Assembly: GCA_964556685.1 (NCBI GenBank)
Contig: CAZKWX010000001.1
Span: 11,417-75,416 of the forward strand
Direction: 5' to 3'
Length of the DNA: 64,000 bases
Origin: an uncultured Bdellovibrionales bacterium
GTDB lineage: Bacteria > Patescibacteriota > Minisyncoccia > Moranbacterales > DUUL01
Positions 8,213 to 34,257 of the stretch are shown piece after piece (position 1 is the first letter of the stretch; each line of letters opens with the position of its first letter). The position numbers and the translations under genes are program-made. Under the pieces are notes generated by a model that was not told where the DNA came from, searched no databases, and saw only the letters and a list, made by a program, of their open reading frames with translations.

Positions 8213-8256
8213 ATAAAGAAATGCTGTAGTGGTACGACATGCTATATTGAAAAATA

Positions 8257-8288: not shown

Positions 8289-8307
8289 AAATTAAGCAAG
8301 TATCTTT

Positions 8308-15116: not shown

Positions 15117-15280
15117 AGAAGTTACGCGATCTAGGTTTAATTTCTCACAAGTAAGGCATTTTTGCCAAACGTTCGCTCCGCTTCCTAAGGTGTCAAAAAT
15201 ACCTTACTTGCGGGAAATTTCCGTTAAGTAAAGCAGGAAAGTGCGCAACTTCTATTAAATAACAATATACACTAAAAAAT

Positions 15281-16300
15281 ATGCCTAAGAAAAATAAATA
15301 CATAATATTTACGCTTATCGCAGTGCTATTGTTAGTGGGAGTTTTTTTGTATCGAACAAAAAATAGTAAGCTGATCAATGAATGGAGTGAAAAAAAGGTA
15401 GAAAAAATAGCTACCGAGCCATTAAAAGTGGGTTTCATCACTGATGCTCATTGCTATTCCAAGCAGGACAAGGACACTGGAGAGTGGACGCTAAATTGGC
15501 GCTGTCAACAGCCACTAGAAATATTCGTGAAAAAAATGAACGAAGATTTTAGGCCAGATGCGGCAATCCAAAGCGGTGATTTTATTGACGGCAAAGATGA
15601 TCATGCCGAAGGGACATTTATTGAAGCTCAAAAAATATTCGATCAATTGACAATGTCAAAATTGAAAGTGGTTGGCAACCATGAAGTTCGAGATTTCACC
15701 AAGCAGAGATGGCTGGAGATGACGGGAAATGAAAAAACCTACTACCATCAGGACATCAAGGGCTATCGCTTGGTGGTTTTGGATGCAAACAACAAACCTG
15801 GTCAGGACGGGTCGTCAGTCGACACTAGCCCGGAACTTGAATATTACCCAGGTTTTATTGACAAGGATCAAATGAAATGGCTCGAAAAACTACTGAAGAA
15901 CTCAAGAGAATACGAAGTGGTAGTTTTTGTCCACCAGCCAACATTTGCCACAGATGCAAAAGAACAAAGAGAATTGTTTGTCGGGGGAGAAGAATTGAGG
16001 AAACTTTTTGCTGAACGAGGAGTGAGGGCAGTTTTTTCTGGCCACATTGAAAGAGTTTGCAATTTTGAAGAAAATGGAGTGGAATATTTTGTGCTCAAAG
16101 GTTTCTGGAAAGAGAATGGGGGACTCAAAGAAGAATTCCAATATAAAAAAGGCGGAAACTTCAGCGAAGTTACAGTTTTGCCAGATGATGTCAAGGTCGA
16201 AATGTATCATCGGGTAGGGAGAGACATGCCCTATGGGAGCAAGGAGATAACACCCGAGAATTATTCCTGTTTTGACGGGGCGACCCTTGCTGACGATTAG
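15281..16300 (+). CDS. calcineurin-like metallophosphoesterase, TM-anchored (paralog B)
   Basis: Clear paralog of 11962..12963 (VGFITDAHCYSK, SGDFIDGKDD, VGNHE, FSGHIE). Confidence 0.75.
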   Translation: MPKKNKYIIFTLIAVLLLVGVFLYRTKNSKLINEWSEKKVEKIATEPLKVGFITDAHCYSKQDKDTGEWTLNWRCQQPLEIFVKKMNEDFRPDAAIQSGDFIDGKDDHAEGTFIEAQKIFDQLTMSKLKVVGNHEVRDFTKQRWLEMTGNEKTYYHQDIKGYRLVVLDANNKPGQDGSSVDTSPELEYYPGFIDKDQMKWLEKLLKNSREYEVVVFVHQPTFATDAKEQRELFVGGEELRKLFAERGVRAVFSGHIERVCNFEENGVEYFVLKGFWKENGGLKEEFQYKKGGNFSEVTVLPDDVKVEMYHRVGRDMPYGSKEITPENYSCFDGATLADD

Positions 16301-16316
16301 ACCGTCCATACATATT

Positions 16317-18077
16317 ATGCAAAAAGTAAAAATCAAAGAGCACTTCAGAAAAAATTGGCACCGGTGGATGCTTTTGGTTATTATTCTGTTGGCTATTTGG
16401 GTGAGGGCTTACAATTATTCTGACTGGCTGCTCATGCGCGCTGATCAAGCCAGAGATGGCTATTATGCAAAAGAAGCATTTGATAACGGGCTAGATCATT
16501 TGCGGCTTTTAGGTCCTAAAGTTGATCTGGCTTATCTTGAAGGGGACAAACTTGAAAGAGGCAACACGCTCCATTTAGCTGGTCCCTTTTATTATTACAT
16601 TCAATATTTTTCCGTGTCTGTCTTTAACACTATGGAACCCTGGGTGGTGGCTTTACCGGATTTAGTGTTTTTTCTATTATCTATTCCTCTTTTCTTTCTT
16701 CTGGCTCGAACATTTTTTTCAAAAACTAACAGTCTTTTATTGACAACCCTATATGCTTTTTCATTTTTCAACATAATTTATTCAAGATTTGCCTGGAATC
16801 CCAACCATTTATATTTTTGGATAGTATTGTTTGTCTTAAGCATGGCCAGGGTGGCAACTGAAAAAGAAAACAAGAAAAAAGGCTGGTGGTTTCTGACAGC
16901 TGTTTTTGGTTTTTTAATTATTTCACAGCTTCATTTCTTGGCCTTGGCTGGTTTTTTTATCGTCGGCATAATTTTCTGGATTATTCTCAGAAAGAGAATA
17001 AAAATCAGCAAAAAATATTGGCTGGCAGCTTTGGCTATCGTGCTTATTTTAAATATTCCTTTGGCAGTTAGTGAATACAAAAACAGAGGTGACAATGTCA
17101 AGCGATATTTAGTGGCCATGACTCGAGAAAGAGAAACGGATGATACACTTTATAAAAAAATTAGCACTACCATGAAGAAGCAGGGAGAATTTTTCTCCAT
17201 CAGTTTGACATCATTTCACGAAGAGGAAATAGCTCCGATTGAAATGATGGGCCTAGTGCTATTTTTGATTTCAATCGGAGCTTTTATTTTCCATTTGGTG
17301 AAAAAGAAGGAAATAACTACTATAAAAAACCAAAAAGTTTTATTTGTGCTGCTGCTTCTTTGGTCAGGTGTTTTCCTTTTGTTGTTTTTTCGAATTTACT
17401 TTAAACTCAACAACGCACGCTATTACATCATGTTAGTCCCAATGAGTTTTCTATTTTTAGGTTTTTGGTTGGCTATGTTGGAAAAGATTAGAAAAAAAGG
17501 CTTAGGAATTTTGATGATGATTGCCGTTTCTCTGACCTTGTTGGCAGGAAACTTGAATGCCACTGCGTACTTTTATGAATCTTTACAAGCTGGCTATAAA
17601 GCAGAAAAGTATTCACGAGATCCAAAATTGGGACCATACAGAGAATTGATAACCTTGGGCGAAATGAGACAAGCTTATATTTTCATGACTGAAGAAGCCA
17701 AAAAAGAAAACAAGGAAGCCTGTTTTCGCAACTCAAACTACCAATACAATTTAGGATTTAAGTATATTGCTGATGTCTATCATTCAGTCGAAGACTTGCG
17801 AAGTTTTAATGTTGAAGACGAAGCGCTTGATTGTAAATATTTCTACACTACCAGGGCGAAGAGAGGAGCAGGAGGCATTGATGAAGAATTTCTCGGAAGA
17901 TTTGAAAGAGGAAAACCCAAGCAATTTGGTGCGATGATTGTTTGGGAAATGAATCTTAAGGAAGGAGAAATAAAGAAAATTCTTGCAAAGAATGTTGAGG
18001 AAGTTGAAAAACCAAAGAAGAAAGATGATGAAAAAAGAATTATAATTTGGAAAGAAGTCTTCAATGGAAAAGAATAA
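16317..18077 (+). CDS. GT-C family membrane glycosyltransferase, paralog 2
   Basis: Polytopic. Shares the N-terminal WxRxYN..DWL..ADQ..D motif with paralogs 3 and 4. The tool ORF starts at TTG 16272; the ATG is at 16317. Confidence 0.6.
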   Translation: MQKVKIKEHFRKNWHRWMLLVIILLAIWVRAYNYSDWLLMRADQARDGYYAKEAFDNGLDHLRLLGPKVDLAYLEGDKLERGNTLHLAGPFYYYIQYFSVSVFNTMEPWVVALPDLVFFLLSIPLFFLLARTFFSKTNSLLLTTLYAFSFFNIIYSRFAWNPNHLYFWIVLFVLSMARVATEKENKKKGWWFLTAVFGFLIISQLHFLALAGFFIVGIIFWIILRKRIKISKKYWLAALAIVLILNIPLAVSEYKNRGDNVKRYLVAMTRERETDDTLYKKISTTMKKQGEFFSISLTSFHEEEIAPIEMMGLVLFLISIGAFIFHLVKKKEITTIKNQKVLFVLLLLWSGVFLLLFFRIYFKLNNARYYIMLVPMSFLFLGFWLAMLEKIRKKGLGILMMIAVSLTLLAGNLNATAYFYESLQAGYKAEKYSRDPKLGPYRELITLGEMRQAYIFMTEEAKKENKEACFRNSNYQYNLGFKYIADVYHSVEDLRSFNVEDEALDCKYFYTTRAKRGAGGIDEEFLGRFERGKPKQFGAMIVWEMNLKEGEIKKILAKNVEEVEKPKKKDDEKRIIIWKEVFNGKE

Positions 18078-19788
18078 TTTTCAAAAAAATTGGCACTGGT
18101 GGGTTTTGGGATCGATTATCGTTCTGGCTTTTTTCGTTCGTGTTTATAATTTTCACGACTGGCTCTATTTTGAGGCTGATCAAGTGCGTAATGCTAACAA
18201 TGCCATCGCCGCTTTTGAAAATGGACCAGGAGAACTTCCTCTGCTGGGGCCCAAAGCAGGGGGAACTGACCTCCATCTAGGACCAATTTCCTATTATTTT
18301 GAATATCTGAGCGCAATCATCACTCAGAGCACCAGACCAGAAGTTTTTGCTTTTCCCAATCTGCTATTTCTCTTGCTGCTTGTGCCTTTGACCTATTATT
18401 TTCTTTCTCACTTTTTTCCAAAAAAAATCAGCCTTTTGGTGGTTCTCGTTTTCTCACTATCATATATGGTCACTCAATATTCTCGTTTTTCTTGGAATCC
18501 AAATGCGATTTTGTTTTGGAGTCTGCTTTTTATGCTTGGGTTATATAAAACATATTCAGAAAAAGAGACTGGAAAGTCAGGCTGGTGGCTTCTTGTTATG
18601 GCTCTGAGCTACGCTGTTGCCAGCCAACTGCACATGGTGGCGTTGCTCGGGTTTCCCTTGATAGCAATTATTTTTTGGATTTTCTATCGACCATTTCACA
18701 TCAAATGGGCTTTTTGGCTAGCTAGTATTGCTCTCTTGTTTTTCTTTTATACTCCGGTGATTGTCAATGATCTGAATACCAGCGGATCCAATACGAAAAA
18801 TTTCTTGCATTCACTCGGAAGCAGGAGTGAAAAGAGAGGATTAATTGAAAGCGGAATTAAAACGGTTGATCTGCACGGAAAATATTACACTTTTGCTACG
18901 CTTTCTTTAAATGAAAAAGAATTTAAATTTTCTCATTGGTTAGGAATCTTATTTGTCATTTTTGGTTTTACACTTATTGTTCTTCATTGGAGAGGGAAGA
19001 TTAAATTGTCTAAAAAATTGCCGCGATCGTTCTTGATTCTTCTTTCTGTTTGGTTTGGTGTTTATCTGCTGATTTATTTTAGGTTAGTCTTCGACTTGGA
19101 TGAACCACGCTTTTGGTTTCCAACTATATTTTTGGCTTTTATTTTACTAGCAATTATTTTTTCCTATTTGTGGAAATATCGATGGGGAAAGCCAGCGGTT
19201 TACGTTATTACAATACTGTTAGTTTTATTGAATCTAACCGCAATCGCTAATTGGTATGGAGGTTTGAAAAACCAGGATGAAAAAAACCGCTTTGGCAGAA
19301 AACCGACAAGCACGACTTTAATTCAAAACGACTTTATTGCTTTGGGCGATATAGAAAAAGCAGCCAGCTTAATTACAGAAAGCTTAAGCGTTGGAAAAGC
19401 GTGCTTTAATACTCCCTCGACATATTTAGCATCTTATAAATTTATATTTAACAGAAACCATTCAGAATTTGAAACAAGAAGAATAGACAAGAGCATTGAA
19501 ATTGGCAATGTCGAAGGTTGTGACGTATTCATTCTGGATCATAGTGGGAACAAGAAAGAAGAGATAGAAGAAAAATTCCTGAAAAAAGGAGCCGAAATTG
19601 AGATTAAAAAAATAGGAACGCAGGGATTAATAACGATTTGGGGAGTCAATGTCATTAGGAATGTGAATGCAGAGAATCTTGAATTAACTCAATCAGACGA
19701 AGATCCTGATGGTATTAAAAAAGAAAAAAAGCCCACAAAAAGGCCTCGGTTGAAGTGGAAAGATATCTTTTCGAAAACCGGAAAGTAG
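18064..19788 (+). CDS. GT-C family membrane glycosyltransferase, paralog 3
   Basis: MEKNNFQKNWHWW..VRVYNFHDWLYFEADQVRN mirrors paralog 2. Overlaps its stop by 14 nt. Confidence 0.6.
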   Translation: MEKNNFQKNWHWWVLGSIIVLAFFVRVYNFHDWLYFEADQVRNANNAIAAFENGPGELPLLGPKAGGTDLHLGPISYYFEYLSAIITQSTRPEVFAFPNLLFLLLLVPLTYYFLSHFFPKKISLLVVLVFSLSYMVTQYSRFSWNPNAILFWSLLFMLGLYKTYSEKETGKSGWWLLVMALSYAVASQLHMVALLGFPLIAIIFWIFYRPFHIKWAFWLASIALLFFFYTPVIVNDLNTSGSNTKNFLHSLGSRSEKRGLIESGIKTVDLHGKYYTFATLSLNEKEFKFSHWLGILFVIFGFTLIVLHWRGKIKLSKKLPRSFLILLSVWFGVYLLIYFRLVFDLDEPRFWFPTIFLAFILLAIIFSYLWKYRWGKPAVYVITILLVLLNLTAIANWYGGLKNQDEKNRFGRKPTSTTLIQNDFIALGDIEKAASLITESLSVGKACFNTPSTYLASYKFIFNRNHSEFETRRIDKSIEIGNVEGCDVFILDHSGNKKEEIEEKFLKKGAEIEIKKIGTQGLITIWGVNVIRNVNAENLELTQSDEDPDGIKKEKKPTKRPRLKWKDIFSKTGK

Positions 19789-19914
19789 TTGTTCAGAAAG
19801 CGGAAATTGGTAATGGAAATTTGAAAATAGAAGATAGATAAATTCAAAAATAAATATGCCAATTTCAAATATCCATTTTCAATTACTGATTTCCAGTTTC
19901 CAAACAGCCAGTTT

Positions 19915-21060
19915 CTATATTTTCACTGGCAATCTCCAGATAACTTTGGTAGCCAAGAAGAAGTTTAACAGGGTAGCGGCAATGACGCCGATGATGGCAG
20001 CGAGAATATAGTGCAGTCCGATTGAAAGCCCGAAAGAAAAAATTGCAAAGTTGAAGAACATTGTGACAACAGAAAAAACATAATAATAGATCACTCGACG
20101 CATGCTCTCTTTTCGATCGGGTGATTTTTTGTCGCTATAAGTGAATAGGGAATTGAAAGCATAGTTCGTCAGGATTGAAACTGCTACTGCGATGATATAA
20201 GCTGGTCTTTCGACTATATTAAAAATTTCTACTAAAATTGCCAAGAGGCCAAGGTTCACAATCACGCCACTAGCTCCGACAATGCAGAATTTAATGAAAC
20301 GTCCGGCCTCAGGAACGGTGCGGAAAAGATGCCAAAGGTGACTAAAAAATTCCAGGCCTTGCTTGAGGGTAGCTTTACTTTGGTCATTTTCTCGAGGAAG
20401 AAATTTCTGTGGAACCAAAGAAACCTTTTTTGGATTTGTGCGCACAAGCAATTCAACTTGGATTTTGAAGCCTCTTGGTTCAAGTTTAACCCTTTCAAGT
20501 AGTTCTCTTTTAAAAAGAAAAAGTCCGGCCAAAGGATCAGAAGTCTTGCGAGTAGGAATGAAAATAATTTGAGTGAACCATTTCATTCCCAAGGAAACAG
20601 CTCGCCGATAGATTCCATAAGGAGTTTTGAGACTGCCTAGTCCTGTAGCGCTTCCTCCTTTCATATAACGAGAAGCGGAAACGAAGTCAGCATCATCACT
20701 GATGGCTTTTCCCAACATTGTTAGCATTACTTCTGGTGGATGTTGCAAGTCTGTGTCCATAGAACCAATATATTTGCCTTGAGATTTTTCAAAGCCAACA
20801 ATGACGGCTGAAGCCAAACCTTCTTTATTACCATAAATAAGCCTTATTTGAGGGTCTTTTTGAACCTCCCGTTCAATGATTTTTGGCGTTTCATCGTCGC
20901 TATCATCAACAAAAATCATTTCATAGTCATATTTGGTATTTGCAAAAACAGCCGTCAGCTTCTCGATTAGCGGTAATACGTTATCCTTTTCATTGAACGT
21001 GGGCAGCACAATGCTGAGCAGTTTTTGATTCTCCATGTTTATTTTTTGTAGTTGACGCAT
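19915..21060 (-). CDS. polyprenyl-phosphate glycosyltransferase (GT2, Dol-P-Man synthase-like) with C-terminal GtrA-like TM domain
   Basis: LSIVLPTFNE, FVDDSDDET and DTDLQHPPE are GT2 motifs. C-terminal 4-TM GtrA-like tail. Alternative ATG at 21036 (MENQK...). Confidence 0.75.
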   Translation of the reverse strand: MRQLQKINMENQKLLSIVLPTFNEKDNVLPLIEKLTAVFANTKYDYEMIFVDDSDDETPKIIEREVQKDPQIRLIYGNKEGLASAVIVGFEKSQGKYIGSMDTDLQHPPEVMLTMLGKAISDDADFVSASRYMKGGSATGLGSLKTPYGIYRRAVSLGMKWFTQIIFIPTRKTSDPLAGLFLFKRELLERVKLEPRGFKIQVELLVRTNPKKVSLVPQKFLPRENDQSKATLKQGLEFFSHLWHLFRTVPEAGRFIKFCIVGASGVIVNLGLLAILVEIFNIVERPAYIIAVAVSILTNYAFNSLFTYSDKKSPDRKESMRRVIYYYVFSVVTMFFNFAIFSFGLSIGLHYILAAIIGVIAATLLNFFLATKVIWRLPVKI

Positions 21061-21075
21061 ATATGCGTCAACTAC
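21048..21075. promoter_or_regulatory. 28-bp perfect palindrome GTAGTTGACGCATAT|ATGCGTCAACTAC at the 5' end of the GT2 gene
   Basis: Perfect inverted repeat. A sibling copy lies inside the GT-C paralog 4 CDS at 22364. Confidence 0.4.
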
Positions 21076-21104
21076 GCTATTATAATTTTCGGTTCAATGA
21101 AGTA

Positions 21105-22907
21105 TTATAAAACATCCTTCCAAAAAAGCCTTTCTGTTTTTCCTGACCCTCCTTCTTCATCTGGAGCTAGCTCTTTTTCTTTTTTAGTTGGTAGTTTTTC
21201 TTTTTGGACTTCCAGCTGAAAAACTTCTAACTGTCCAATTTGTTTCGAATCAACTATTTTAGTATAAGGTTGAATTTTTTTGTTGATAGAATTCTTGCCG
21301 CCAGATTTTGTTACTAAAGCAAAAATAGTGTCGACATTTTCCAAGTCACTCGACCCTCCTGCATAGGAATAGTCTATTTCGTTTTGAAGGGAAAGCAAGT
21401 ACTTCGTTGGCAGCATGTATTCTGCTTTAGTGTTATAAATCAATGTCAATCCGGGATTATTTTTGAGCATATACTCAATAGCTTTTTCAAATTGGCCTAA
21501 GGTAACCCCATCTTGGTTTTTGAGAATCAGTGTTCGGTTAGTATCAAAACTTTTTTCTTGAGAAAGTTCGTTTTCCCTGAACCAAGCGCAGGTGCCGAAA
21601 ATATTTAATAATAAGAAAATTGCTGAAATGATAAAAATTAATGGAAGATAATTTTTCACCACTCTTTTTTCTAGTGCCGAAAACCAAAGAGCGATGATGA
21701 TAAATGGGATGGGGAAAACCGGGACAAAATAACGTGGTCTGAGCAGGTACGAAGTAGTAATAGTAACTAAAAAGAACAGTACTATCCAGATAATGAGCAT
21801 GAAAAGAAAGTTTTTATCATTCTGCTTTGATTTAACCTTGTATTCTTTAATGGCCAGATAAATACCAGAAAAAATGAAAAGTAATCCAAACCCAACAGTT
21901 ATGGGGTCAGCTTTGTGGCCTTTTCGGTGACTGAATGAAGTGGTGATCAGTGAATAACCCTTAGCTTGTTCGCGGAAATTTCGAATGATTTTCTTGTGGA
22001 ACTTTTTGTCCTTTGATTTGGCCTCGAAGGCACCAAAAAAGTTTTTAGTGTTTGAAAAATCAGTCTTGAAATCACTAATAATCACTGGGGAATAAATTAT
22101 TCCGAAAATTAAGAGAGTTGTCAAAACATAAAAAAGAGAATTTTTGGAAGAAAGGATGTTTTTAACGTTTCCTGATTGAGGTTTCACCGCGAGTACTCGC
22201 GGTGAAACCTCTCTTGAGCGGTCCCAAATATAATAAACAATGAAAACTACCGAAATTGCAATTAAAGCAAAGGCGGCATAAAAATGAAGTTGCGATGCGA
22301 CAGCAAAGGCAAAGGCCCAAAGAGCAATCCAGCCAATTTTTTTCCAAAGATTCTTATTTTCTTGTAGATGACGCACATGTGCGTCATCTACAGAAGAAAA
22401 ACGCAATAGAGCATAAATTGTCAATAGCATGAAAAACGGCACGGAATTTGGATTCCAGGAGAAACGGGAATACTGAATAATTAAGAAGGAAAAAGAATAA
22501 AGTAATGTGGCTAAAAGAGCTGGCACTGGCTTGAAATAGAGTCGCAAAAATAAATAGAAGAGTGGAATGACTAGAATCGAAAACAGCAAGTCTGGATAGG
22601 CAAAAACGTCAGGGGACGAAGATTTAAAAATCGCACCAGAGGTCCATTGCATGTAATAGTAGGCTGGTCCTAATCGCAAGAAATCTGTGCCACCAGTTTC
22701 AGTTGAGACTTTCGTAGCCCTTGGTCCCAATAGCGGCAAGTTTTCTGCTCCATTTTCAATGGCTGGTTTCAAAAGGGAAGCATCTCGTGCCTGGTCCCAC
22801 TTAAAAAACAGCCAATCATGATGTTGATAGGTTCGAACCCAAATTGCTCCGGCGATGATCAGAACAAGAGCAACGCCAACCCAGATTTTTGTTTTGTTGT
22901 TATTCAT
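21105..22907 (-). CDS. GT-C family membrane glycosyltransferase, paralog 4
   Basis: MNNNKTKIW...VRTYQHHDWLFFKWDQARD. Same architecture as paralogs 2 and 3. Confidence 0.6.
   Translation of the reverse strand: MNNNKTKIWVGVALVLIIAGAIWVRTYQHHDWLFFKWDQARDASLLKPAIENGAENLPLLGPRATKVSTETGGTDFLRLGPAYYYMQWTSGAIFKSSSPDVFAYPDLLFSILVIPLFYLFLRLYFKPVPALLATLLYSFSFLIIQYSRFSWNPNSVPFFMLLTIYALLRFSSVDDAHVRHLQENKNLWKKIGWIALWAFAFAVASQLHFYAAFALIAISVVFIVYYIWDRSREVSPRVLAVKPQSGNVKNILSSKNSLFYVLTTLLIFGIIYSPVIISDFKTDFSNTKNFFGAFEAKSKDKKFHKKIIRNFREQAKGYSLITTSFSHRKGHKADPITVGFGLLFIFSGIYLAIKEYKVKSKQNDKNFLFMLIIWIVLFFLVTITTSYLLRPRYFVPVFPIPFIIIALWFSALEKRVVKNYLPLIFIISAIFLLLNIFGTCAWFRENELSQEKSFDTNRTLILKNQDGVTLGQFEKAIEYMLKNNPGLTLIYNTKAEYMLPTKYLLSLQNEIDYSYAGGSSDLENVDTIFALVTKSGGKNSINKKIQPYTKIVDSKQIGQLEVFQLEVQKEKLPTKKEKELAPDEEGGSGKTERLFWKDVL
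22364..22391. repeat. 28-bp palindrome GTAGATGACGCACATGTGCGTCATCTAC embedded in-frame in the GT-C paralog 4 CDS
   Basis: Near-copy of the 21048 palindrome. Encodes an extra ...DDAHVRHLQ... segment absent from paralogs 2 and 3 at the aligned position. Confidence 0.5.
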
Positions 22908-23094
22908 TCTTGCTCCAGTCTCTGATTAAAATCGTTTTCTTTTCATCATCAACTTCCAATACGACTTTCTGTTTTTCTCTCCACTTCCATTTTCGAACAA
23001 TTTCAATAGGCAATGTTACACCATAGCTAGTTCCACTAGATGTTTTGGTGATTTTTCGAATGAAATGTTCTTCGATTTTTCTTCTAGTTTTCAT
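22900..23094 (-). CDS. AbrB/SpoVT/MazE-family swapped-hairpin DNA-binding protein
   Basis: YGVTLPIEIVRKWKW...VVLEVDDEKKTILIRD matches the AbrB N-domain (VVIPIELRR..G....L.I.VDDEKIIL). Overlaps the paralog 4 start by 8 nt. Confidence 0.55.
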   Translation of the reverse strand: MKTRRKIEEHFIRKITKTSSGTSYGVTLPIEIVRKWKWREKQKVVLEVDDEKKTILIRDWSKNE

Positions 23095-23103
23095 TTTTTT
23101 GCT

Positions 23104-23125
23104 CCACCTGAGATATCTCAGGTGG
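23104..23125. promoter_or_regulatory. 22-bp perfect palindrome CCACCTGAGAT|ATCTCAGGTGG overlapping the RBS of the AbrB-like gene
   Basis: The left arm CCACC is the complement of the GGTGG Shine-Dalgarno of the minus-strand gene starting at 23094. Confidence 0.4.
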
Positions 23126-23162
23126 AAAATATTTTAATGCCTAAGAATGCCTTATTTTGGGG

Positions 23163-24626
23163 TTATTTAGAGGTCTTCTTTTTTAGGGAGTCACGAAACA
23201 TGGTCCAATCTTCTTGCTTGATTTCTTTGAAAATATACAAGAACAACAAATATACAGCAAATAAAATTCCGCCCCAAAGGATGAACATAAATTTTCCTTG
23301 AGGAAGAAAAGAGATGGCGATGAAATAAATCACGATACTAGCTAGAAAGTATTTTAGTAACTTTATATAGTTAATAAACTTGGCCACATTCTTCTGGGAA
23401 AAATAAATTATGACAAACATGACCAAAAGGGAAGTGATTGAGGTGGCGACAGCAGCTCCCATAATGCCATATTGCTGAATCAAAAAGAAACCTAGTATTG
23501 TGTTGGTGACCATGCCAGAAAAAGTGATCCACATTGGAATTCGATTCTTGCCAGCGCCATTGAGAACAAAAGCCAGGGCATAGAAAACCGTCAGGAATCC
23601 AACTCCAAAAGCAAGGATCTGCATTGGCAAATAAGCGGGAATGAAATTTTCGCCATAGAAAAACAAAACGGCCGAAGGTGCGAAAGCGGAGAGCAGAAAT
23701 ACAAAAGGAATCAGCAGCATGAACAAAAAGCGCATCGATTTGTTCATCAGATTTTTTGTTTCTTTGTTCAATCCTTGAGAAGTGGTTTCGGAAATTTTTG
23801 GCAGTAAAATTAAGGTGAGGAAATAGAAAAGATAGAAGGGAATGCGGGCGAGCGTGATGGCCGCGTTGTAGAATCCAGTTAGGGAGTCGTCTTGCAGAAT
23901 TCCTTTGACCATGAAGAGATCGATCGAAATCATGATCTCAAAGAATATCATGAATAAAGTTATTGGCCAGGCAAATTTGATCAGCTTTTTCCAAGTGATT
24001 TCTGATTTTGATTGTATATTTTTCGACTTTAGTTTTTTGTATGGATCAGCAATGAATGCGACGATGAACACGGCCAAAGGAGCCAAAAAGTGGCCCACAA
24101 CGGCTCCAGGGACTGCGAAAATCACAGCTAGTGGAATGATAAAGACCACCTTAGCAAAAGAGCGGAAAAACTTCAGGAATGCTTGTTTTTGGAATTGTTG
24201 AATGCCAACAAAATAATAGACATAGAAGCTGGCCAGAGCGAAAGCTGGGATGATGAGAGAGGAAAGCTGGAAAAGAGGCGTCAGAGTGGGGTCATTAAGA
24301 AGCGTGGCGAAAACAGGCGCCAAAAGGAAATATAAAGTGGTGACGACAACAATCAAAATCAATTGAACTGCCAAAGCATTTTTTCGAATGATGGGAATCT
24401 GATTTTTGTCTTTCTTGAAGATTTCACTCAGATATTTGCTCATTGAAATTGGCACGCCTCGGCCAATCAAAACCACAACCATGGTGGACAAGGTGATGGC
24501 CAAAGCATAGCGACCATAATCTGCCGGACCCAAAACCCGGCCCAAAACTGAGTGGACAATGTAACCAGAAATAGCAAAGGCCATTTCTGCTAGGAGCAAC
24601 CAAATTGAAGCACGGACTAGGGACAT
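23163..24626 (-). CDS. MOP-superfamily polysaccharide flippase (Wzx/MurJ-like)
   Basis: ~14 TM helices, 487 aa. Typical polysaccharide biosynthesis protein topology. Confidence 0.7.
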   Translation of the reverse strand: MSLVRASIWLLLAEMAFAISGYIVHSVLGRVLGPADYGRYALAITLSTMVVVLIGRGVPISMSKYLSEIFKKDKNQIPIIRKNALAVQLILIVVVTTLYFLLAPVFATLLNDPTLTPLFQLSSLIIPAFALASFYVYYFVGIQQFQKQAFLKFFRSFAKVVFIIPLAVIFAVPGAVVGHFLAPLAVFIVAFIADPYKKLKSKNIQSKSEITWKKLIKFAWPITLFMIFFEIMISIDLFMVKGILQDDSLTGFYNAAITLARIPFYLFYFLTLILLPKISETTSQGLNKETKNLMNKSMRFLFMLLIPFVFLLSAFAPSAVLFFYGENFIPAYLPMQILAFGVGFLTVFYALAFVLNGAGKNRIPMWITFSGMVTNTILGFFLIQQYGIMGAAVATSITSLLVMFVIIYFSQKNVAKFINYIKLLKYFLASIVIYFIAISFLPQGKFMFILWGGILFAVYLLFLYIFKEIKQEDWTMFRDSLKKKTSK

Positions 24627-24631
24627 CTGGA

Positions 24632-24683
24632 ATGTATTAGGTATTAATACTTTGTCATTCCCGTGAAGGCGGGAATCTATTAG
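24632..24683. repeat. Family F element (TATTAGGTATTA..TTGTCATTCCCG-loop-CGGGAATCTATTAG)
   Basis: Reverse-complement copy of the element at 55193-55250. Confidence 0.6.
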
Positions 24684-24899
24684 TCAGTGTTTTTTAAAGA
24701 CGTATTCTATATTAACAATAAAATCTTCTCCTTCTTCAATTATATCTATTTGTTTATCAATCACTTCATATCGCCCAGCCTTTTCAGAACTATCCTTTTT
24801 AAAGCTTAAAATATCTCCAATGGATAGAGGCATTCCTCCTTGAATAGAGACAACCTCTTCTTTTCCATCAATAATTATTTTTGTATTTTTCTTGATCAT
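24684..24899 (-). CDS. hypothetical small protein
   Basis: 71-aa ORF in an operon-like arrangement downstream of the Tmk-like gene. No recognisable motif. Confidence 0.3.
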   Translation of the reverse strand: MIKKNTKIIIDGKEEVVSIQGGMPLSIGDILSFKKDSSEKAGRYEVIDKQIDIIEEGEDFIVNIEYVFKKH

Positions 24900-24903
24900 T
24901 TTT

Positions 24904-25497
24904 CTAATTATTTATTACTGATTGGAGTTCTTCGAAAACTTCATCCCGGCTTTGTTCGCCATCGATCACAGTCATTTTCCACCGCTTACAAAAAATTCTG
25001 TAAAGCTTCCTTTTATCGTGCAGATAATCAGGGCTCTGATCAATCGATTTTTCACGATTAAGAACGGCATCGGGTGAAACGTCAATGAAAATATAATAAT
25101 CAGGCGGAACAATCTTTTTTTCTGCCGAGCCTAGCAGGCCTTTAATGTTTCTCTCACCCTCTAAGTAGAGGATGTTGACTATTTGATCATAGAAATACCT
25201 GTCGGTGATGACATAGTCGTTGCCAGCTTTTTCCAATCGATCATAATATTTTTTGAATCTCGTTAGGTCAATCAATAATCCAATTTTTCGCAAAAAGATT
25301 TTGAAAAACCCAGCCGAAGTAACCGACTTGCTTTTCTTGTCTTTCGGTCTTCTCCTTAAGGTGGTGTTAGCAATAGAAAAATCAAGCACGTGAAAATATT
25401 GAACGGTTTTTCCGTTTTTCTCGAGATCATCTTTGAGCCTTTCGACTTGAGTGGATTTTCCGGAACCATCAATTCCAGAAATAGAAATGATTTTCAT
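24904..25497 (-). CDS. thymidylate kinase-family P-loop kinase (Tmk-like)
   Basis: GIDGSGKST P-loop and a DRY-like motif (ITDRYFYD) match the dTMP kinase family. Diverges elsewhere. Confidence 0.55.
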   Translation of the reverse strand: MKIISISGIDGSGKSTQVERLKDDLEKNGKTVQYFHVLDFSIANTTLRRRPKDKKSKSVTSAGFFKIFLRKIGLLIDLTRFKKYYDRLEKAGNDYVITDRYFYDQIVNILYLEGERNIKGLLGSAEKKIVPPDYYIFIDVSPDAVLNREKSIDQSPDYLHDKRKLYRIFCKRWKMTVIDGEQSRDEVFEELQSVINN

Positions 25498-26039
25498 TTT
25501 TTATATATTCTAAGCAAATAGGATGCTGCAAATAGCTGAATTGTACCCATGACAAAAAATAGCACTGTGAAAGATGAATAATTCACAATCAGCCCACCAA
25601 CAATAATAGCTATTCCAGCAATAATAATCCATACGCCTTCAGCTAGTCCCCAAGCAAAACCACTTTTCTTCCTAGTTGTGCTTTCTGCGTACAATGCATC
25701 CCAGGTAGGCATGATAAAAGCGGAACCGATGCCAATGCCAGCTTGAACTAACAGTAACTCAATCGGTGAGGAAACTAGCAAATACCCATAAGTAAACAGA
25801 GCTACAATAAAGAAACCAATAATCAGCAGTTTTTCTTTGGAGATGTTTTTATCTGAATATTTTCCAACTAAAATTGTTGTCAGTCCCATTAATATTAAAT
25901 AAACAGCCCAAGCCCATGAAATGTCTAATATGTTGCCTCCAACTTGCTGCCCGAAAACTGCAAAGAGGGGGCCGAGCATTCCTGCGCTCAATGACCATAA
26001 GCCAATGCCTATTAATAATGTTCTTCCGTTTTTGTTCAT
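25494..26039 (-). CDS. MFS-like 6-TM membrane protein (half-size)
   Basis: Six predicted TM helices with MFS-like loops. Only half the usual 12-TM length. ATG at 26039 (the tool ORF starts at GTG 26063). Confidence 0.4.
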   Translation of the reverse strand: MNKNGRTLLIGIGLWSLSAGMLGPLFAVFGQQVGGNILDISWAWAVYLILMGLTTILVGKYSDKNISKEKLLIIGFFIVALFTYGYLLVSSPIELLLVQAGIGIGSAFIMPTWDALYAESTTRKKSGFAWGLAEGVWIIIAGIAIIVGGLIVNYSSFTVLFFVMGTIQLFAASYLLRIYKK

Positions 26040-26070
26040 CGTCAATAAGGTAATACGAAACACCTATCTA

Positions 26071-26208
26071 TCCCTCCCCTTGGTAAAGGGAGGTTGGGAG
26101 GGGTTCGTCAGAATGTCAGGAGTCGCCGACCATTTTAACTAACTCCCCGAGCAAAGCTCATCCGCTTCGCTCCACTCCACTCTTACCAAGAGGGGGAAAA
26201 GAAATGAA
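26071..26208. repeat. Family A composite repeat (GGGTTCGTCAGAATGTCAGGAGTCGCC...CTAACTCCCCGAGCAAAGCTCATCCGCTTCGCTCCACTCTTACCAAGAGGGGGAA)
   Basis: A ~100-nt core recurs at 47141, 54515, 60195 and partially at 30381. It contains three internal hairpins. Confidence 0.75.
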
Positions 26209-26226
26209 TTTCTCAATTTAAAATAG

Positions 26227-27717
26227 TTAATACATCAAAACTGCTACAGGCATCATTTTGGCAACCGGCTTCATGACGCCATTGGTTTTGAGGCCTTCAA
26301 TAGCTTTATCCGGATTTTTATAATGAGCTGCATCCTGTTCGATCACGCCTTTTGAGGCGGCGTTGTAGAGCTTGACTCCTCGACGATTCATTTTGTCAAA
26401 AAGCACTTTTTTATTTTCTGGCACTTCAGATGTTTTGGTTTTAGATTTTCCGGTGCCGTGAGCGGCCGAAAAGTAGGCTGATTCGTTGTCATTTGTCCCA
26501 ACTCCAAAGTAAGCTGGAGTGCTCATAGAAGAAGGCATGAAAACAGGCTCGCCAGTTTGGGCAAATTTTGTTCCTTGCATTCTTTCTGGTCCAAAGGCCC
26601 GGGTGGTGTTCTGACGGTGAATCATCAAATCTTTACCAAAGTGATTTTCTTTTTTTGCATAAACATGGTTCATGTCATAGATCAGATTCAGCGAATCTTT
26701 CTTGCCCAAAATTTCTTCGATGGTTCTCTTGAGATGAAATTGAATCATGGTTCGATTGGCAAAGCCCATATTGGAAGCAGCTCGGTGAGCTGTGAAATAG
26801 TTTCTTCCCAAATCGCTGTCGGCCTTGAAAGAGAAGAATTCTTTTTTGTCTTTATATTTAGGCACTTCGGTTTCAATTGTTCGGTGCCAATCGATTTTGT
26901 TGTTGAGGAAGAAAAATCGTCCCATTTCCAAAATTGCTCTTTGGCTCAGATGTTCCTTGATTTTAGGAGTATAAAAATAGCTGGCATATTGGCCAAATAA
27001 TCCTGATCCTGTGTGAATCCAAAAAACATATTGACCTTTTTTCAGGTTGAATTTTTGAGCAGCGTCTTCGTCTAAAACATCAGTAACTTTCATCAGATCT
27101 ACAAAGTGATTGCCAGCGGCTCCCAAAATTCCCAGGCGGAATTGCCCAAAACGGAAAAACCAGCGAGGGAGAGAATTGTACAAATCTTTTTTGGTCACTT
27201 TTTCATCTTCAAACATGTTGCCCTCAGAGTGGACATTCTTGAACTGCTCGACGTCATCTTGCAACCACTCAGAAAGTGCTCGAGAACCTCTTTGGCAGAT
27301 GTCTAAAACGACTCGAAGGGGAACATAGGTGCCAAAGTATGTTTTGGTAGGAATTACTTCAACTAATTTCTTGAAAAGCTCATCAATTTGTTCTTCTTTC
27401 AAATTTTCCTCGCTAAAGGGCGTGCTCATCAATCGCATCCCGCAATTTGGTGCGGTGTCTAAAAGTTGAGGCATGAAATGATTTTCTGTGGCTACCACAG
27501 TTCCTCCGGCATTTCTCCGGCCAGGCTTCTTATGAACATCAGTCATGGCTGCAACATGCGCAACTACGTAAGAATCAGATGCCACATCAACCAGCTGCCC
27601 TATGGTTTCATCATCAGGCATCAGTTCGTCAGAGACATGAAAAATCACCGGAACTTTTTGATTTCCTGAAGGCTGTAAAATTTTTTTATAATCAGATATT
27701 TTTTCGAATTGATTCAT
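26227..27717 (-). CDS. rtcB: RtcB-family RNA ligase
   Basis: HVAAMTDVHKK, NCGMR, GNHFVD and AAHGTGK motifs characteristic of RtcB. 496 aa. Confidence 0.8.
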   Translation of the reverse strand: MNQFEKISDYKKILQPSGNQKVPVIFHVSDELMPDDETIGQLVDVASDSYVVAHVAAMTDVHKKPGRRNAGGTVVATENHFMPQLLDTAPNCGMRLMSTPFSEENLKEEQIDELFKKLVEVIPTKTYFGTYVPLRVVLDICQRGSRALSEWLQDDVEQFKNVHSEGNMFEDEKVTKKDLYNSLPRWFFRFGQFRLGILGAAGNHFVDLMKVTDVLDEDAAQKFNLKKGQYVFWIHTGSGLFGQYASYFYTPKIKEHLSQRAILEMGRFFFLNNKIDWHRTIETEVPKYKDKKEFFSFKADSDLGRNYFTAHRAASNMGFANRTMIQFHLKRTIEEILGKKDSLNLIYDMNHVYAKKENHFGKDLMIHRQNTTRAFGPERMQGTKFAQTGEPVFMPSSMSTPAYFGVGTNDNESAYFSAAHGTGKSKTKTSEVPENKKVLFDKMNRRGVKLYNAASKGVIEQDAAHYKNPDKAIEGLKTNGVMKPVAKMMPVAVLMY

Positions 27718-27753
27718 TTATGCTATGATAATGAAAAAGAAAGGAGGTTTGTC

Positions 27754-27972
27754 ATGCAAGCACTTAATAATTTCTGCGCAAATTTATCTAAATTCTTTAT
27801 TTTTCCAATAGGAATGGTTTATCTGAGTTTATCATTCGCCTGCCAATCTCGAAGTGCAGGCTTAGGGTCTTGTATCGTGCTAAATTGCTACGCGACTGCC
27901 ATAATTGGCATACTTATAATGATCTACGTCGTATCACCGATGTACACTAGGTATCAAAGAGGGAAAAAATAA
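27754..27972 (+). CDS. small membrane protein (hypothetical)
   Basis: AGGAGG Shine-Dalgarno 7 nt upstream of the ATG at 27754. Two hydrophobic helices. Confidence 0.3.
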   Translation: MQALNNFCANLSKFFIFPIGMVYLSLSFACQSRSAGLGSCIVLNCYATAIIGILIMIYVVSPMYTRYQRGKK

Positions 27973-27996
27973 AATGGAAAACAAATATCAATCTTG

Positions 27997-28019
27997 AGGA
28001 CCCATGAATTCGGGTCCTC
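27997..28019. terminator. hairpin GAGGACCC-ATGAATT-CGGGTCCTC between convergent genes
   Basis: 8-bp GC-rich perfect stem between the 27754(+) and 28025(-) genes. Only a weak U-tract. Confidence 0.4.
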
Positions 28020-28024
28020 AAAGC

Positions 28025-29200
28025 TTATAGGCTCTCATAAACTTCAGCATACTCCTTAGCTGTTTTTTTTATGTCAAAATTTTCCTGGGCAAATTTTCTA
28101 GCATTAGAGCCGATTCGGTCTAGTGTGACTGGGTTGTTTTTTAAATATTCAATTGTCTTAGCCAAAGTTTCAGGATCGGCTTTGGGAACGATAACCCCAT
28201 TTTCTCCATCCCTGACGAACTCTTTTAAAACAGGCAGATCTGAAATAACAACAGCTCTTCCACAAGCCATCGGTTCAACGATAGCATAGGGAATGTCAAA
28301 TTTTCCTTCCATTTTACGCGCTGGGAAAATATTTAAATCAGTCGTATTAAAAAGTCTGGCAATGTCATTAAAATAGTCCAAAAACACCACCTGCTTATCA
28401 TAGCCCGATTTCTTCAGTCTTTCAATCACTGCCTCTTTCTTCTTTTTATCTTCAGGAGATTTTATTCGTACAGTCATAATCAGCTTATATTTCAAATCTT
28501 TTTTCCAAAGAATTTCCATCGCATCAATCACATCATCAACTGTTTTTTCATTCATCTTGGTGTATTCTCCAGTATACTGGAGAAGGAAATCTTCAGAAGA
28601 AAATCCCAATTCTTGAATCAGCTGCTCGTCTTTTGCTGTAGGGGAATATTCTTCTAAATCAATCCCGGGGTATATTGTAGCGGTATTCTCAATGCCTACC
28701 TTATTCAGTTTTTCTTCGGTGTGATTGGATTGAGTGATAACTTTATCAGTGAAGAAAACTTTTCTCAGTTTTTTATTATTCCCACATGTAGAGTTGAGAC
28801 ATTGCCTCGACTCTACGGATGGCAAGGCAGCTACGGTTTGGATGGTTTTGGCCTTAGAAAATGACAAACGTAGTTTTATCATGAATGAAGTCAAAGAGCG
28901 AGGAGTGAAAAGGAAGTGAATAGCGTCTGCGTTCAGCTTGAAGCGATAAAGTCTCATGAGCAATCTCAGCTTTGACCAAGCGCCGAATTTGGTGGAACTA
29001 TAAATTGGTTCTGGTTTTGCTTCGGCCAAATAGCCTTCCTTTTTCTCTTCTTTCTTTTTAATCTCCTTAGCAAACTCTTGGGTGGTCAACACTTCAAACT
29101 CAAAATCACCCTCAACATTTTGAGATAATTCATAGGCTAAATTTTTCGATGCCTCATCCCAGGGTGGAGCCAATGGGCGAGTGTAGAGGAGAATTTTCAA
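28025..29200 (-). CDS. glycosyltransferase family 1 (GT4-like)
   Basis: C-terminal EGKFDIPYAIVEPMACGRAVVISDLPVLKEFV...GENG is the GT1 E-x7-E type motif. Apparent TTG start. Confidence 0.8.
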   Translation of the reverse strand: MKILLYTRPLAPPWDEASKNLAYELSQNVEGDFEFEVLTTQEFAKEIKKKEEKKEGYLAEAKPEPIYSSTKFGAWSKLRLLMRLYRFKLNADAIHFLFTPRSLTSFMIKLRLSFSKAKTIQTVAALPSVESRQCLNSTCGNNKKLRKVFFTDKVITQSNHTEEKLNKVGIENTATIYPGIDLEEYSPTAKDEQLIQELGFSSEDFLLQYTGEYTKMNEKTVDDVIDAMEILWKKDLKYKLIMTVRIKSPEDKKKKEAVIERLKKSGYDKQVVFLDYFNDIARLFNTTDLNIFPARKMEGKFDIPYAIVEPMACGRAVVISDLPVLKEFVRDGENGVIVPKADPETLAKTIEYLKNNPVTLDRIGSNARKFAQENFDIKKTAKEYAEVYESL

Positions 29201-29321
29201 TTTCAGATTTTAAATTTATAATTTCAATTTTGTAATTAATCAGGTTTCGTTTCTTGAAGCTAAGCTTCGCAGCCGTTACTTTATGTAAAAGTTGACTTAG
29301 AATAAAATCTACTTATACTTG

Positions 29322-29452
29322 AGTTGGGCAGGATGGTTAGGTGACGTATACCTTTTACAGAGCGGACTTGGTCCTTTTAAAAGCTGTTAGGTGGGGACTA
29401 AGTTCGTTGTATATCAAACTTGGCCGTTCTGCCCATTTTTTATAGGTCAATG
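29322..29452 (+). ncRNA. candidate structured small RNA (closing stem TGGGCAGGA...TCTGCCCA plus U-tract)
   Basis: ~125-nt intergenic segment whose ends pair (TTGGGCAG / CTGCCCA), followed by TTTTTTAT on the + strand. Internal hairpins GGACTTGGTCC and GGTGACGTATACC. Confidence 0.2.
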
Positions 29453-29874
29453 AAGAAACCTTTCTGGGCCTTTTTTGTTTCCAAGCGTTTTGTGATTTCT
29501 TCAACATTCTTATCTTTATTCCAAATAACTCTAACCAAGGCTTTATGCTCTCCGGATCTCAATGATTCTATTTCTTTTTTCACTTCATTTGGAGTCGCAA
29601 CTGACGACTTTCCACCGCTGGGAATTTCCACTTTTTCAGTGTGGGACAACTGGTCGTCCATGTAATATTCAACCGTGAAAGTTCTTTTTTGCGGTTCGGA
29701 ATTATTGATGAAGAAATCAAGATTGCTTAAATTACTATCTATAGTCTCAAATCCCACCACCACAAAACCACGAGTGGCTTTTTGGTTGAGAACTTTGTCG
29801 CCATGCCGAAACAGGATGCCAACGGCACCGAATATTATGATTAATATTAATACAATTAACAATTTTGACTTCAT
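29440..29874 (-). CDS. N-terminally TM-anchored hypothetical protein
   Basis: Single N-terminal TM helix, then a soluble domain. No motif recognised. Confidence 0.4.
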   Translation of the reverse strand: MKSKLLIVLILIIIFGAVGILFRHGDKVLNQKATRGFVVVGFETIDSNLSNLDFFINNSEPQKRTFTVEYYMDDQLSHTEKVEIPSGGKSSVATPNEVKKEIESLRSGEHKALVRVIWNKDKNVEEITKRLETKKAQKGFFIDL

Positions 29875-29880
29875 TTTTCT

Positions 29881-29960
29881 TGTTTTTCTTCCCCTCTTCT
29901 TAAGAGGGGACTGAATTCATTGGTTTTGAATTCAGGGAGTTCGTCGGGAGGCTGTTATGT
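29881..29960. repeat. hairpin-module repeat (CCCCTCTT-CTT-AAGAGGGG + CTGAATTCA-TTGGTTTT-GAATTCAG)
   Basis: The TGAATTCA-N-TGAATTCA hairpin module recurs at ~36518, ~47164 and ~58785. Confidence 0.6.
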
Positions 29961-29979
29961 TTACCAAGTATTATATTCC

Positions 29980-30363
29980 TTAATTATCCAGTCCTAATTC
30001 TTCTCTAATTTTGAACAAAATCCCGTCTAAATTATTATATATTTCATTGTTCCAAAATCTGACAGCCTTAATTCTTTGTGTTTTTAAAAATTCAGACCTA
30101 TTCTTGTCACTTTCTCTGCTACTTTCATAAGCATGTTGATCCCCATCTAATTCTATGGCCAGTCTCTTTCTAGGACAATAAAAATCTAAAATGTATTTTC
30201 CTATACTGTATTGCCGATAAAATTTGTATCCCTCAATTTGTTTATTTCTTAACTGTTGCCATAATTTTCCTTCAGCGTCAGTCTGATTTTTTCGAAAAGC
30301 TCGGGGCAATTGTTTAGATCTTTTTTGATTGTGTCGATTAGACAACATCTTTTTATTTATCAT
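29980..30363 (-). CDS. DUF559 / Vsr-like endonuclease-fold protein
   Basis: YRQYSIGKYILDFYCPRKRLAIELDGDQH matches the DUF559 (very-short-patch-repair endonuclease-like) core. ATG at 30363. Confidence 0.6.
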   Translation of the reverse strand: MINKKMLSNRHNQKRSKQLPRAFRKNQTDAEGKLWQQLRNKQIEGYKFYRQYSIGKYILDFYCPRKRLAIELDGDQHAYESSRESDKNRSEFLKTQRIKAVRFWNNEIYNNLDGILFKIREELGLDN

Positions 30364-30380
30364 TGACAACTGCCAGATAG

Positions 30381-30418
30381 CTAACTCCCCCTAACCCCCT
30401 CTTGCCAAGAGGGGGAAT
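30381..30418. repeat. partial family A element (CTAACTCCCCCTAACCCCCTCTTGCCAAGAGGGGGAA)
   Basis: Matches the 3' half of family A. Confidence 0.55.
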
Positions 30419-30430
30419 TCATATAATTTA

Positions 30431-32422: not shown

Positions 32423-32467
32423 TGATTACTACACTAATTATACGCCAAAATTAGGGAAAAACAACAT

Positions 32468-32496
32468 TTGACAAAATACTTATAAAATGATATAAT
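32468..32496 (+). promoter_or_regulatory. consensus sigma70-type promoter TTGACA-17-TATAAT
   Basis: TTGACA at 32468-32473, 17-nt spacer, TATAAT at 32491-32496. Lies ~85 nt upstream of the ATG at 32584. Flanked by the 11-bp inverted repeat AAACAACATTT / AAATGTTGTTT. Confidence 0.5.
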
Positions 32497-32583
32497 CATA
32501 GAATATAATAAATGTTGTTTTTTTTAAATAATCTCTCAATAGCGACGCAAAATAAACCAACAGAAATCAGTGAGGAAAGGAGA

Positions 32584-33015: not shown

Positions 33016-33032
33016 TAAGCGGCATGAACAAA

Positions 33033-33077
33033 AAAGGTCCCGTCGACAGACAATTTGTCGATGGGCCTTTATCTTTT
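33033..33077 (+). terminator. rho-independent terminator
   Basis: GGTCCCGTCGAC-loop-GTCGATGGGCC stem followed by TTTATCTTTT. Lies 18 nt after the stop of 32584..33015. Confidence 0.6.
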
Positions 33078-33084
33078 AGAAAGA

Positions 33085-34194: not shown

Positions 34195-34202
34195 TTTAAA
34201 TC

Positions 34203-34246
34203 TGGCGACCCAAATATACGAATTAACACTCGAATGTTACGAATGG
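34203..34246. repeat. Family C element (GGCGACCCAAATATACGAATTAACACTCGAAT...)
   Basis: Begins 9 nt upstream of the GT1 start codon. Related copies at 63471 (abutting the pyrG start) and 60881. Confidence 0.6.
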
Positions 34247-34257
34247 GTTAAATGAAA

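Follow-up and report, generated by a model that had tools for sequence, protein, structure and literature searches.

The window analysed in this work is a stretch of 64,000 nucleotides from an uncultured Patescibacteria genome (contig CAZKWX010000001.1 of assembly GCA_964556685.1, positions 11,417 to 75,416). As judged by the source names attached to the homologs, this Patescibacteria member is Moranbacteria-like. In one region of it, where all genes are on the minus strand, a small AbrB/MazE-fold open reading frame (ORF), a GT-C glycosyltransferase gene and a GT2 glycosyltransferase gene follow each other (Table 1). Two closely related palindromes in this gene string, called A1 and A2 here, are the subject of this work. 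The original prediction, made from the letters alone, had placed two copies of a palindrome at 21048-21075 and 22364-22391, and both are found exactly there. A1 lies in the 68-nt gap between the GT-C stop and the likely GT2 start and ends 11 nt upstream of this ATG; gene callers start GT2 at another ATG (21060), which is within the palindrome itself. A2 is inside the GT-C gene, whose reading frame of 600 aa is open throughout and whose start overlaps the AbrB/MazE-fold ORF by 8 nt.

Table 1. Palindromes, insertions and host genes, with positions in the window.
Feature	Position	Strand	Description	Remark
A1	21048-21075		perfect 28-bp palindrome GTAGTTGACGCATATATGCGTCAACTAC, double-foot type (GTAG...CTAC); intergenic, between GT-C stop (21105) and GT2 start (21036)
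A2	22364-22391 (core); 22363-22392 (perfect 30-bp palindrome)		GTAGATGACGCACATGTGCGTCATCTAC; inside the GT-C gene	A1 family
Insertion carrying A2	22362-22394	minus	33 nt, 11 codons (SVDDAHVRHLQ), residues 172-182	gap in 2 paralogs and 119 homologs
Flanks of this insertion			CGTTTTTCT and GAAAATAAG on either side of the 33 nt
B	22178-22211		perfect 34-bp palindrome GAGGTTTCACCGCGAGTACTCGCGGTGAAACCTC; second in-frame insertion in the GT-C gene	without GTAG foot
C	23103-23126		perfect 24-bp palindrome TCCACCTGAGATATCTCAGGTGGA; intergenic, 8 nt upstream of the ATG of the AbrB/MazE-fold ORF
E	28788-28816		degenerate 29-nt GTAG...CTAC hairpin with 2 mismatches, coding for VESRQCLNST	inside the GT4 gene 28025-29200 (minus strand)
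GT2 gene	19915-21036	minus	GT2 + GtrA-like polyprenyl-phosphate glycosyltransferase, downstream of the GT-C gene	Pfam Glycos_transf_2 and GtrA
GT-C gene ('paralog 4')	21105-22907	minus	PMT/PMT_2 family, 600 aa	Pfam; AlphaFold2 mean pLDDT 90.2
AbrB/MazE-fold ORF	22900-23094	minus	64 aa, first of the abrB-like / GT-C / GT2 string	PF04014, E = 2.3e-8

In-frame palindromic insertions in glycosyltransferase genes

The element has a simple layout of 28 bp, that is, a GTAG at the 5' end, an 8-bp stem, a 4-nt centre, the other side of the stem, and a CTAC at the 3' end. The half-sites of A1 and A2 agree at 12 of 14 positions, so that each arm has two differing positions; all four differences are compensated, and both copies are still perfect palindromes. 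Each folds into a hairpin with a 12-bp stem (z = -6.0 for A1 and -5.4 for A2). The 18-nt core common to both has two matches in the window, compared with none in 100 dinucleotide shuffles, and the 12-nt half-site GTAGNTGACGCA has five, compared with a shuffle mean of 0.31. In addition, a CT dinucleotide is found directly 5' of the GTAG in A2.

At the protein level, A2 had been predicted to add ~11 residues (SVDDAHVRHLQ) relative to the paralogs, and the alignments indeed reveal an 11-residue indel. Both GT-C paralogs in the window show a clean gap opposite VDDAHVRHLQ plus one residue, and exactly these 11 residues are missing at the A2 site in 119 of the 119 best database homologs (38-53% identity). 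When the 33 nt are removed, RFS is joined directly to ENKNLWKKIGW, and the resulting segment aligns gap-free with KFIESKKVKQRIGW of the closest homolog. The GT-C family does not acquire palindromic inserts as a rule, as the 45-aa insert of another homolog (P0052) is not palindromic at the DNA level.

We have built an AlphaFold2 model of the GT-C protein on 60 homologs, with a mean predicted local distance difference test score (pLDDT) of 90.2. In this model, residues 172-182 form the end of one helix (155-175) and a loop (176-182) before the next helix (183-207). The pLDDT is 67 in the block 171-180 and 77 in the block 181-190, compared with 97 and 98 in the blocks on either side, and this region is one of three interior pLDDT dips. 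In PMT/ArnT-type enzymes, it is established that the catalytic first loop is on the outer face; considering this together with the order of helices and the K/R content of the loops, the loop carrying A2 is predicted to face the cytoplasm. That is, the cytoplasmic loop claimed by the original prediction agrees with the model as far as a low-pLDDT loop between helices is concerned, while its cytoplasmic side should be taken as deduced rather than measured.

Only one frame of the palindrome is free of stops (GTA GAT GAC GCA ..., read as VDDAHVRHLQ), since stops close the other two, namely the TAG of the GTAG foot (second frame) and the TGA of TGACGCA (third frame). A2 should be tolerated because its 33 nt are a multiple of three, the only stop-free frame is used, and the loop is away from the extracytoplasmic catalytic loop; the insert is presumably neutral. 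Overall, the indel alignments, the structure model and the wider element family described below support the earlier view of a palindromic mini-element tolerated in frame within a protein loop.

A2 is not the only insert of this kind, although a single one had been named before. The same gene contains a second and different palindromic insert, B, and the nearby GT4 gene contains a GTAG-type one, E. B codes for EVSPRVLAVKPQ (residues 233-244), an insertion of ~11-12 residues that is absent from all homologs. It is located in the next loop after that of A2, where the pLDDT is 66 and 61 in the blocks covering 231-250, and this loop is likewise predicted to be cytoplasmic. E has been found through a generic double-foot scan: as a genome hosting double-foot repetitive extragenic palindromes (REPs) might contain others, the window was scanned for GT[AG]G...C[TC]AC hairpins, and three were observed (A1, A2 and E), compared with a shuffle mean of 0.17. 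Nearly all of 119 GT4 homologs show an 8-residue gap at the position of E, which is therefore a lineage-specific in-frame insertion. Actually, both A2 (11 aa) and E (8 aa) show what is expected of an in-frame REP insertion, i.e., extra residues that are absent from homologs and encoded by the palindrome, with the frame kept. Two glycosyltransferase genes within 7 kb thus carry three in-frame insertions, though this cluster may be no more than a consequence of which genes the region contains.

Together with A1, A2 and B, the intergenic palindrome C makes four perfect palindromes of 24-34 bp within 2.1 kb. B is a perfect and young-looking in-frame insertion with no further copy in the window, the 17 collected loci, the viral contigs or the plasmids; C is likewise an orphan, with no further copy in the window or the viral contigs. 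A hand alignment of the half-sites of B and C gives ~9/13 matches with 2 gaps, which we judged not significant. C may be an operator of the AbrB/MazE-fold ORF, and is counted here as context rather than as a member of the REP family. The GT4 gene also holds a perfect 20-bp palindrome, TTCTCCAGTATACTGGAGAA (28565-28584), which codes by eye for LQYTGE. Its surroundings, again as judged by eye, resemble the conserved core typical of GT4, so an insertion is improbable and the palindrome may have arisen by chance.

The element family in other genomes and its RAYT neighbours

We have scanned public collections for the pattern GTAGNTGACGCANNNNTGCGTCANCTAC. The scan yields one locus in a metagenome-assembled genome (MAG) of Leptospiraceae (L001) and 11 metagenome stretches, which together represent nine independent loci. 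The core is nearly always GTAGGTGACGCATATATGCGTCACCTAC, the free positions of the pattern stay complementary, and one locus (L009) carries the A2-type arm GTAGATGACGCA. We considered the Leptospiraceae match as a possible coincidence and rejected this, since the metagenome scan places it in the same family. In plasmids, the A core has only short chance matches, and five matches to the 18-nt core in viral contigs are without the GTAG foot and look unrelated.

In these loci, half-sites are nested or arranged in arrays with palindromic flanks, and extra half-sites occur in tandem beside full copies. For instance, a 110-bp perfect palindrome holds four half-sites in L002 (1854-1963), and 50-bp perfect palindromes with variable outer arms surround an A-type core in L001 (71-120), L003 (4276-4325) and L008 (1113-1162). 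It seems that the element targets the centres of existing palindromes or grows by inverted duplication. A CT is directly 5' of the GTAG in 4 of 10 independent metagenomic copies. Wherever the palindromes are within an ORF, they are read as VGDAYMRHLQ, in the same frame as VDDAHVRHLQ in the window. In-frame copies in unrelated genes include one in a kinase-AAA protein (L011), whose open frame is at least 811 aa long and extends to the locus end, and a copy of the type GTAGAGACGCA... in an MmeI-like enzyme gene (L024).

A Y1 (HUH) transposase homolog of the REP-associated tyrosine transposase (RAYT, or TnpA_REP) kind is found in three of the nine independent family loci. In one of them (L005/L006), a palindrome is ~100 bp upstream of the homolog and another is in frame inside the gene; in the second (L007), a palindrome is just downstream and a related GGGAACGCATATATGCGTCCCC is in the 5' part of the gene; in the third (L003), the distance is 7 kb. 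These homologs match NCBIfam REP_Tyr_transpos best (E = 8e-16 to 9e-20, though the curated cut-off is not reached), with Pfam Y1_Tnp in addition, and the RAYT loci show the NH[IV]H, WQ and YIxxNP motifs.

The palindromes are found not only beside RAYT genes but also in them. In four RAYT loci (L006, L020, L023 and L024), perfect GTAG...CTAC palindromes are inside the gene, and in three of these related copies are alongside. In L020, whose protein source is named Patescibacteria, GTAGGGAACGCAGATATGCGTTCCCTAC is upstream, the perfect GTAGGGAACAGGCATGCCTGTTCCCTAC is inside the gene and a degenerate copy is downstream; in L023 and L024, the gene contains GTAGGGGACGCA(GATC/TATA)TGCGTCCCCTAC. Moreover, many of 120 RAYT homologs have a hypervariable peptide directly after the HUH motif MPNHIHGI, which resembles a translated GTAG...CTAC palindrome (VGDAYMRHLQ, VGDADLRPLQ, VGNAYMRSLQ, VGNRHACSLQ, VGTEQCSVPT and others).

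As a separate observation, related RAYT-like genes also occur within cas operons, directly upstream of the adaptation genes (L006:2537-3169, L031:2475-2999 and L024:8211-8774). In L006 and L031 the gene is between cas5 and a cas4-cas1 fusion, and in L024, where the system is of type I-E, cas6e and cas1 flank it. A literature search combining COG1943, CRISPR and cas1 found no relevant paper.

Probable assignment to double-foot REPs and competing explanations

Based on the above analyses, A1 and A2 are quite probably two copies of a GTAG-headed double-foot REP, of the kind that accompanies Y1 (HUH) transposases of RAYT/TnpA_REP subclass 2.4 (Bertels group 4). Both are short stem-loop palindromes (28 and 30 bp) within the 20-40 bp range of REPs; A1, A2 and E all carry the feet, i.e., GT[AG]G at the 5' end and C[TC]AC at the 3' end (PMC6006769); and in other genomes sequence-related palindromes adjoin RAYT genes or are inside them (L005/L006, L007, L020, L023 and L024). 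GTAG-footed palindromes have thus made lineage-specific in-frame insertions in this genome, using a single open frame, and their family travels elsewhere with subclass 2.4-like RAYTs. The original prediction was right in reading a mini-element, and did not recognise its type. A1 and A2 are an instance of an already described phenomenon, not a new one.

The closest known system is subclass 2.4, equal to RAYT group 4, in which double-foot REPs occur and REPs are found in frame inside tnpA_REP (Quentin, Siguier, Chandler & Fichant 2018, PMC6006769). As in these REPs, a long perfect stem in A1 and A2 joins GT[AG]G on the 5' side to the reverse complement of this foot on the 3' side; the same work offers the collapse of a dimer as a possible origin of double-foot REPs. 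Subclass 2.4 is scattered over various phyla, and as there, the RAYT loci collected here carry palindromes in frame. On the other hand, the element of the window has two to three copies and no transposase in the window, its host genes are glycosyltransferases, and its host, Patescibacteria, is not named in the summary table of that work, which gives 'Cyanobacteria, Bacteroidetes and various phyla' for subclass 2.4.

Other palindromic elements share part of these features. REPs may be wholly within ORFs, sometimes two per ORF, and may be inserted at the centres of other palindromes (Di Nocera, De Gregorio & Rocco 2013, PMC3733652). The present elements are similar in being GTAG-tagged palindromes of 20-40 bp that are found in ORFs, add short peptides, in some cases twice per ORF, can be near ORF starts, and are at the centre of other palindromes in the metagenome loci. 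They differ in the tag, since the GTAG of those GTAG/CGTC-tagged REPs is unpaired at one end while it is paired with CTAC here, and in the host genes, since the intragenic cases there are enriched in replication and repair genes and not in glycosyltransferases. Rickettsia palindromic elements (RPEs), as far as they are described in PMC3733652 (citing Ogata et al. 2000), are also palindromic in-frame inserts in surface or loop regions of genes that remain functional. A1 and A2 are not RPEs, considering their length of 28-30 bp and their patescibacterial host. RPEs are much longer (~100-150 bp for RPE-1), and are known neither outside Rickettsia nor with a RAYT partner. A1 and A2 are not a REPIN either, as they are single units 1.3 kb apart with coding sequence between them. 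A REPIN consists of two inverted REPs and a spacer, compared with the single 28-bp units here, though REPINs, too, derive from REPs, are non-autonomous and are presumably mobilised by RAYTs (Bertels & Rainey 2011, PMC3116915).

As for the mechanism, TnpA_REP recognises GTAG and the hairpin on single-stranded DNA and cleaves at CT dinucleotides in vitro (PMC8266576). Published work on TnpA_REP and IS200/IS605 shows that elements of this type, folded into hairpins on single-stranded DNA, are recognised by the GTAG foot together with the stem and cut at a nearby CT, which is presumably how they spread. In the present genome, the literature suggests that a RAYT may have mobilised the element, and one copy would have entered the gap between GT-C and GT2 while the other would have entered the GT-C coding sequence. 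Copies in genes would survive only if they are a multiple of three in length, are read in the open frame and have entered a tolerant loop.

Several observations weigh against this assignment. No RAYT homolog is found in the 64-kb window (tblastn, best E = 8), which contains just two A-family copies and one degenerate relative. A1 has neither a CT beside its foot nor palindromic flanks, and the closest GT-C homolog is only 52-53% identical (BLASTP), so that no empty site has been seen. The four central nucleotides (TATA, CATG or GATC) are palindromic as well, which is not needed for a hairpin loop and would also fit the recognition of duplex DNA by a symmetric dimer. Finally, B is an equally clean in-frame insertion without a GTAG foot, so palindromic inserts may also arise here in some way that differs from RAYT-type mobilisation.

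As a rival explanation, A1, at the GT2 promoter, and A2, inside the upstream gene, could be paired operators to which a symmetric dimeric transcription factor binds; this factor would regulate the GT-C/GT2 operon, possibly by looping over 1.3 kb. Both being perfect palindromes with palindromic centres and compensated differences agrees with this, as do the position of A1 between a TATAAT-like hexamer and the GT2 start, the small AbrB/MazE-fold DNA-binding protein encoded at the head of the operon, and the probable use of perfect palindromes as operators elsewhere in this genome, where palindromes called D flank a Trp-repressor-family gene (see below). But the core is dispersed in many unrelated contigs with unrelated neighbours, nested, read through in ORFs and linked to RAYTs, and an operator needs no 11 added codons in a protein. 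The promoter scan also gives no two-hexamer promoter at A1, and a single factor cannot explain the cluster since A, B and C differ in sequence, so we regard a pair of operators as quite improbable. Alternatively, the palindromes could be kept mainly as RNA hairpins that set the expression of GT-C versus GT2 through mRNA stability or processing, or translation pausing. The hairpins predicted on the sense strand are very stable (folded segments at -21.6 to -31.6 kcal/mol, with z between -5 and -6), the compensated changes preserve perfect pairing, and A1 is in an intercistronic gap like many REPs (PMC3733652). However, no U-tract follows any of the hairpins on the sense (minus) strand, where the sequence downstream is AAAAAAUAAAC for A1 and GCAAAAAAA for C, so they are not intrinsic terminators, and the terminator and promoter scan of the window performs no better than on shuffles. 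Neither G-U pairs nor other RNA-specific signals are present in A1 or A2, and Rfam has no match in the window apart from sub-threshold matches to miRNA hairpins (E = 0.03-0.7). As a role in RNA leaves the dispersal of the family and the RAYT linkage unexplained, it is compatible with the REP assignment rather than a replacement for it, and is improbable as the main explanation; an effect of the hairpins on GT-C/GT2 operon expression would be secondary. For the internal regulatory or recombination site that the original prediction had offered as its alternative, we have found no positive support, though such a role may still exist as a secondary one.

Perfect palindromes without a loop are also what strand switches should produce, and four of them (24-34 bp) within 2.1 kb, with B and C having no relatives in the collections searched, could suggest that they arose locally de novo by template switching or fold-back synthesis, without a mobile element. 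Yet a strand switch copies adjacent DNA and so renews only half a palindrome, while the alignments show that the whole palindrome (11 codons) is extra. Besides, A1 and A2 agree at 12/14 half-site positions and have their core in common with loci of other organisms, which independent local events cannot bring about; we consider such an origin very unlikely. Finally, the palindromes could be an artefact of assembly or sequencing, such as a chimeric junction or a linker. The Logan contigs all break at B, because de Bruijn assemblers have difficulty with a perfect palindrome of 34 bp, and one contig end (L027) has a C-to-A mismatch inside B that would create a TAA stop. On the other hand, four independent SRA runs have given Logan contigs that match 15190-34359 of the window at 99.97-100% identity and contain A1, A2, B and C, with A1 identical in three contigs and A2 identical in L027. 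The palindromes are therefore no artefact of one assembly. In addition, the frame is open through 600 aa and the same element type is present in many other datasets, so an artefact can practically be dismissed. A palindromic mate-pair linker is rejected on account of the same independent assemblies, and the palindromes are not known to match any mate-pair linker.

The assignment of A1 and A2 to double-foot REPs opens no long-standing question. It extends the documented tolerance of in-frame REPs in protein loops to the ultra-small genome of a Patescibacteria member and to polytopic membrane glycosyltransferases, and gives a simple rule for why the inserts are always read as V-[GDE]-x-x-...-L-Q, as the foot and the TGA of the stem close the other two frames. 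For annotators of MAGs, peptides like VGDAYMRHLQ and assembly breaks at perfect palindromes are useful flags, and the inserts mark permissive loop positions in GT-C enzymes. One could go further and suppose that B, and perhaps C, represent a new foot-less class of coding-compatible palindromic mini-elements, and that hairpin elements preferentially decorate cell-surface glycosylation genes in these tiny genomes, where they might generate variation of the surface or of expression instead of being neutral passengers; we think this rather unlikely.

Other palindromic motifs of the window

Apart from the elements above, the perfect palindrome D, ACTCTCATATATGCATATATGAGAGT, has three copies (39640-39667, 50291-50316 and 50797-50830). 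Two of them flank a 138-aa Trp-repressor-family gene (50371-50787; PF01371, E = 6.5e-14), and the second of these is just upstream of a large gene (50854-52374). The D palindromes are probably operators of this Trp-repressor-family regulator.

A palindromic octamer, GTATATAC, is doubled at 4-nt spacing (e.g., CGTATATACGAACGTATATACG) at 8252-8293, 36334-36375, 58010-58042 and 58684-58715, and looks like a binding-site or promoter motif. In addition, the hairpin AAGAAACTTAGTTTTCAGGGAAACTAAGTTTCTT (39759-39792), without a match in Rfam, has 14-bp arms and a 6-nt loop and is in the long gap before a gene starting at 39864. Lastly, seven hairpins with 9-bp stems and loops of 1-3 nt start at 1601, 8192, 29890, 30395, 58813, 58951 and 60233; four of the seven are close to CCCCTCTT-N3-AAGAGGGG and the other three are related variants, and they may be the transcription terminators of this organism.

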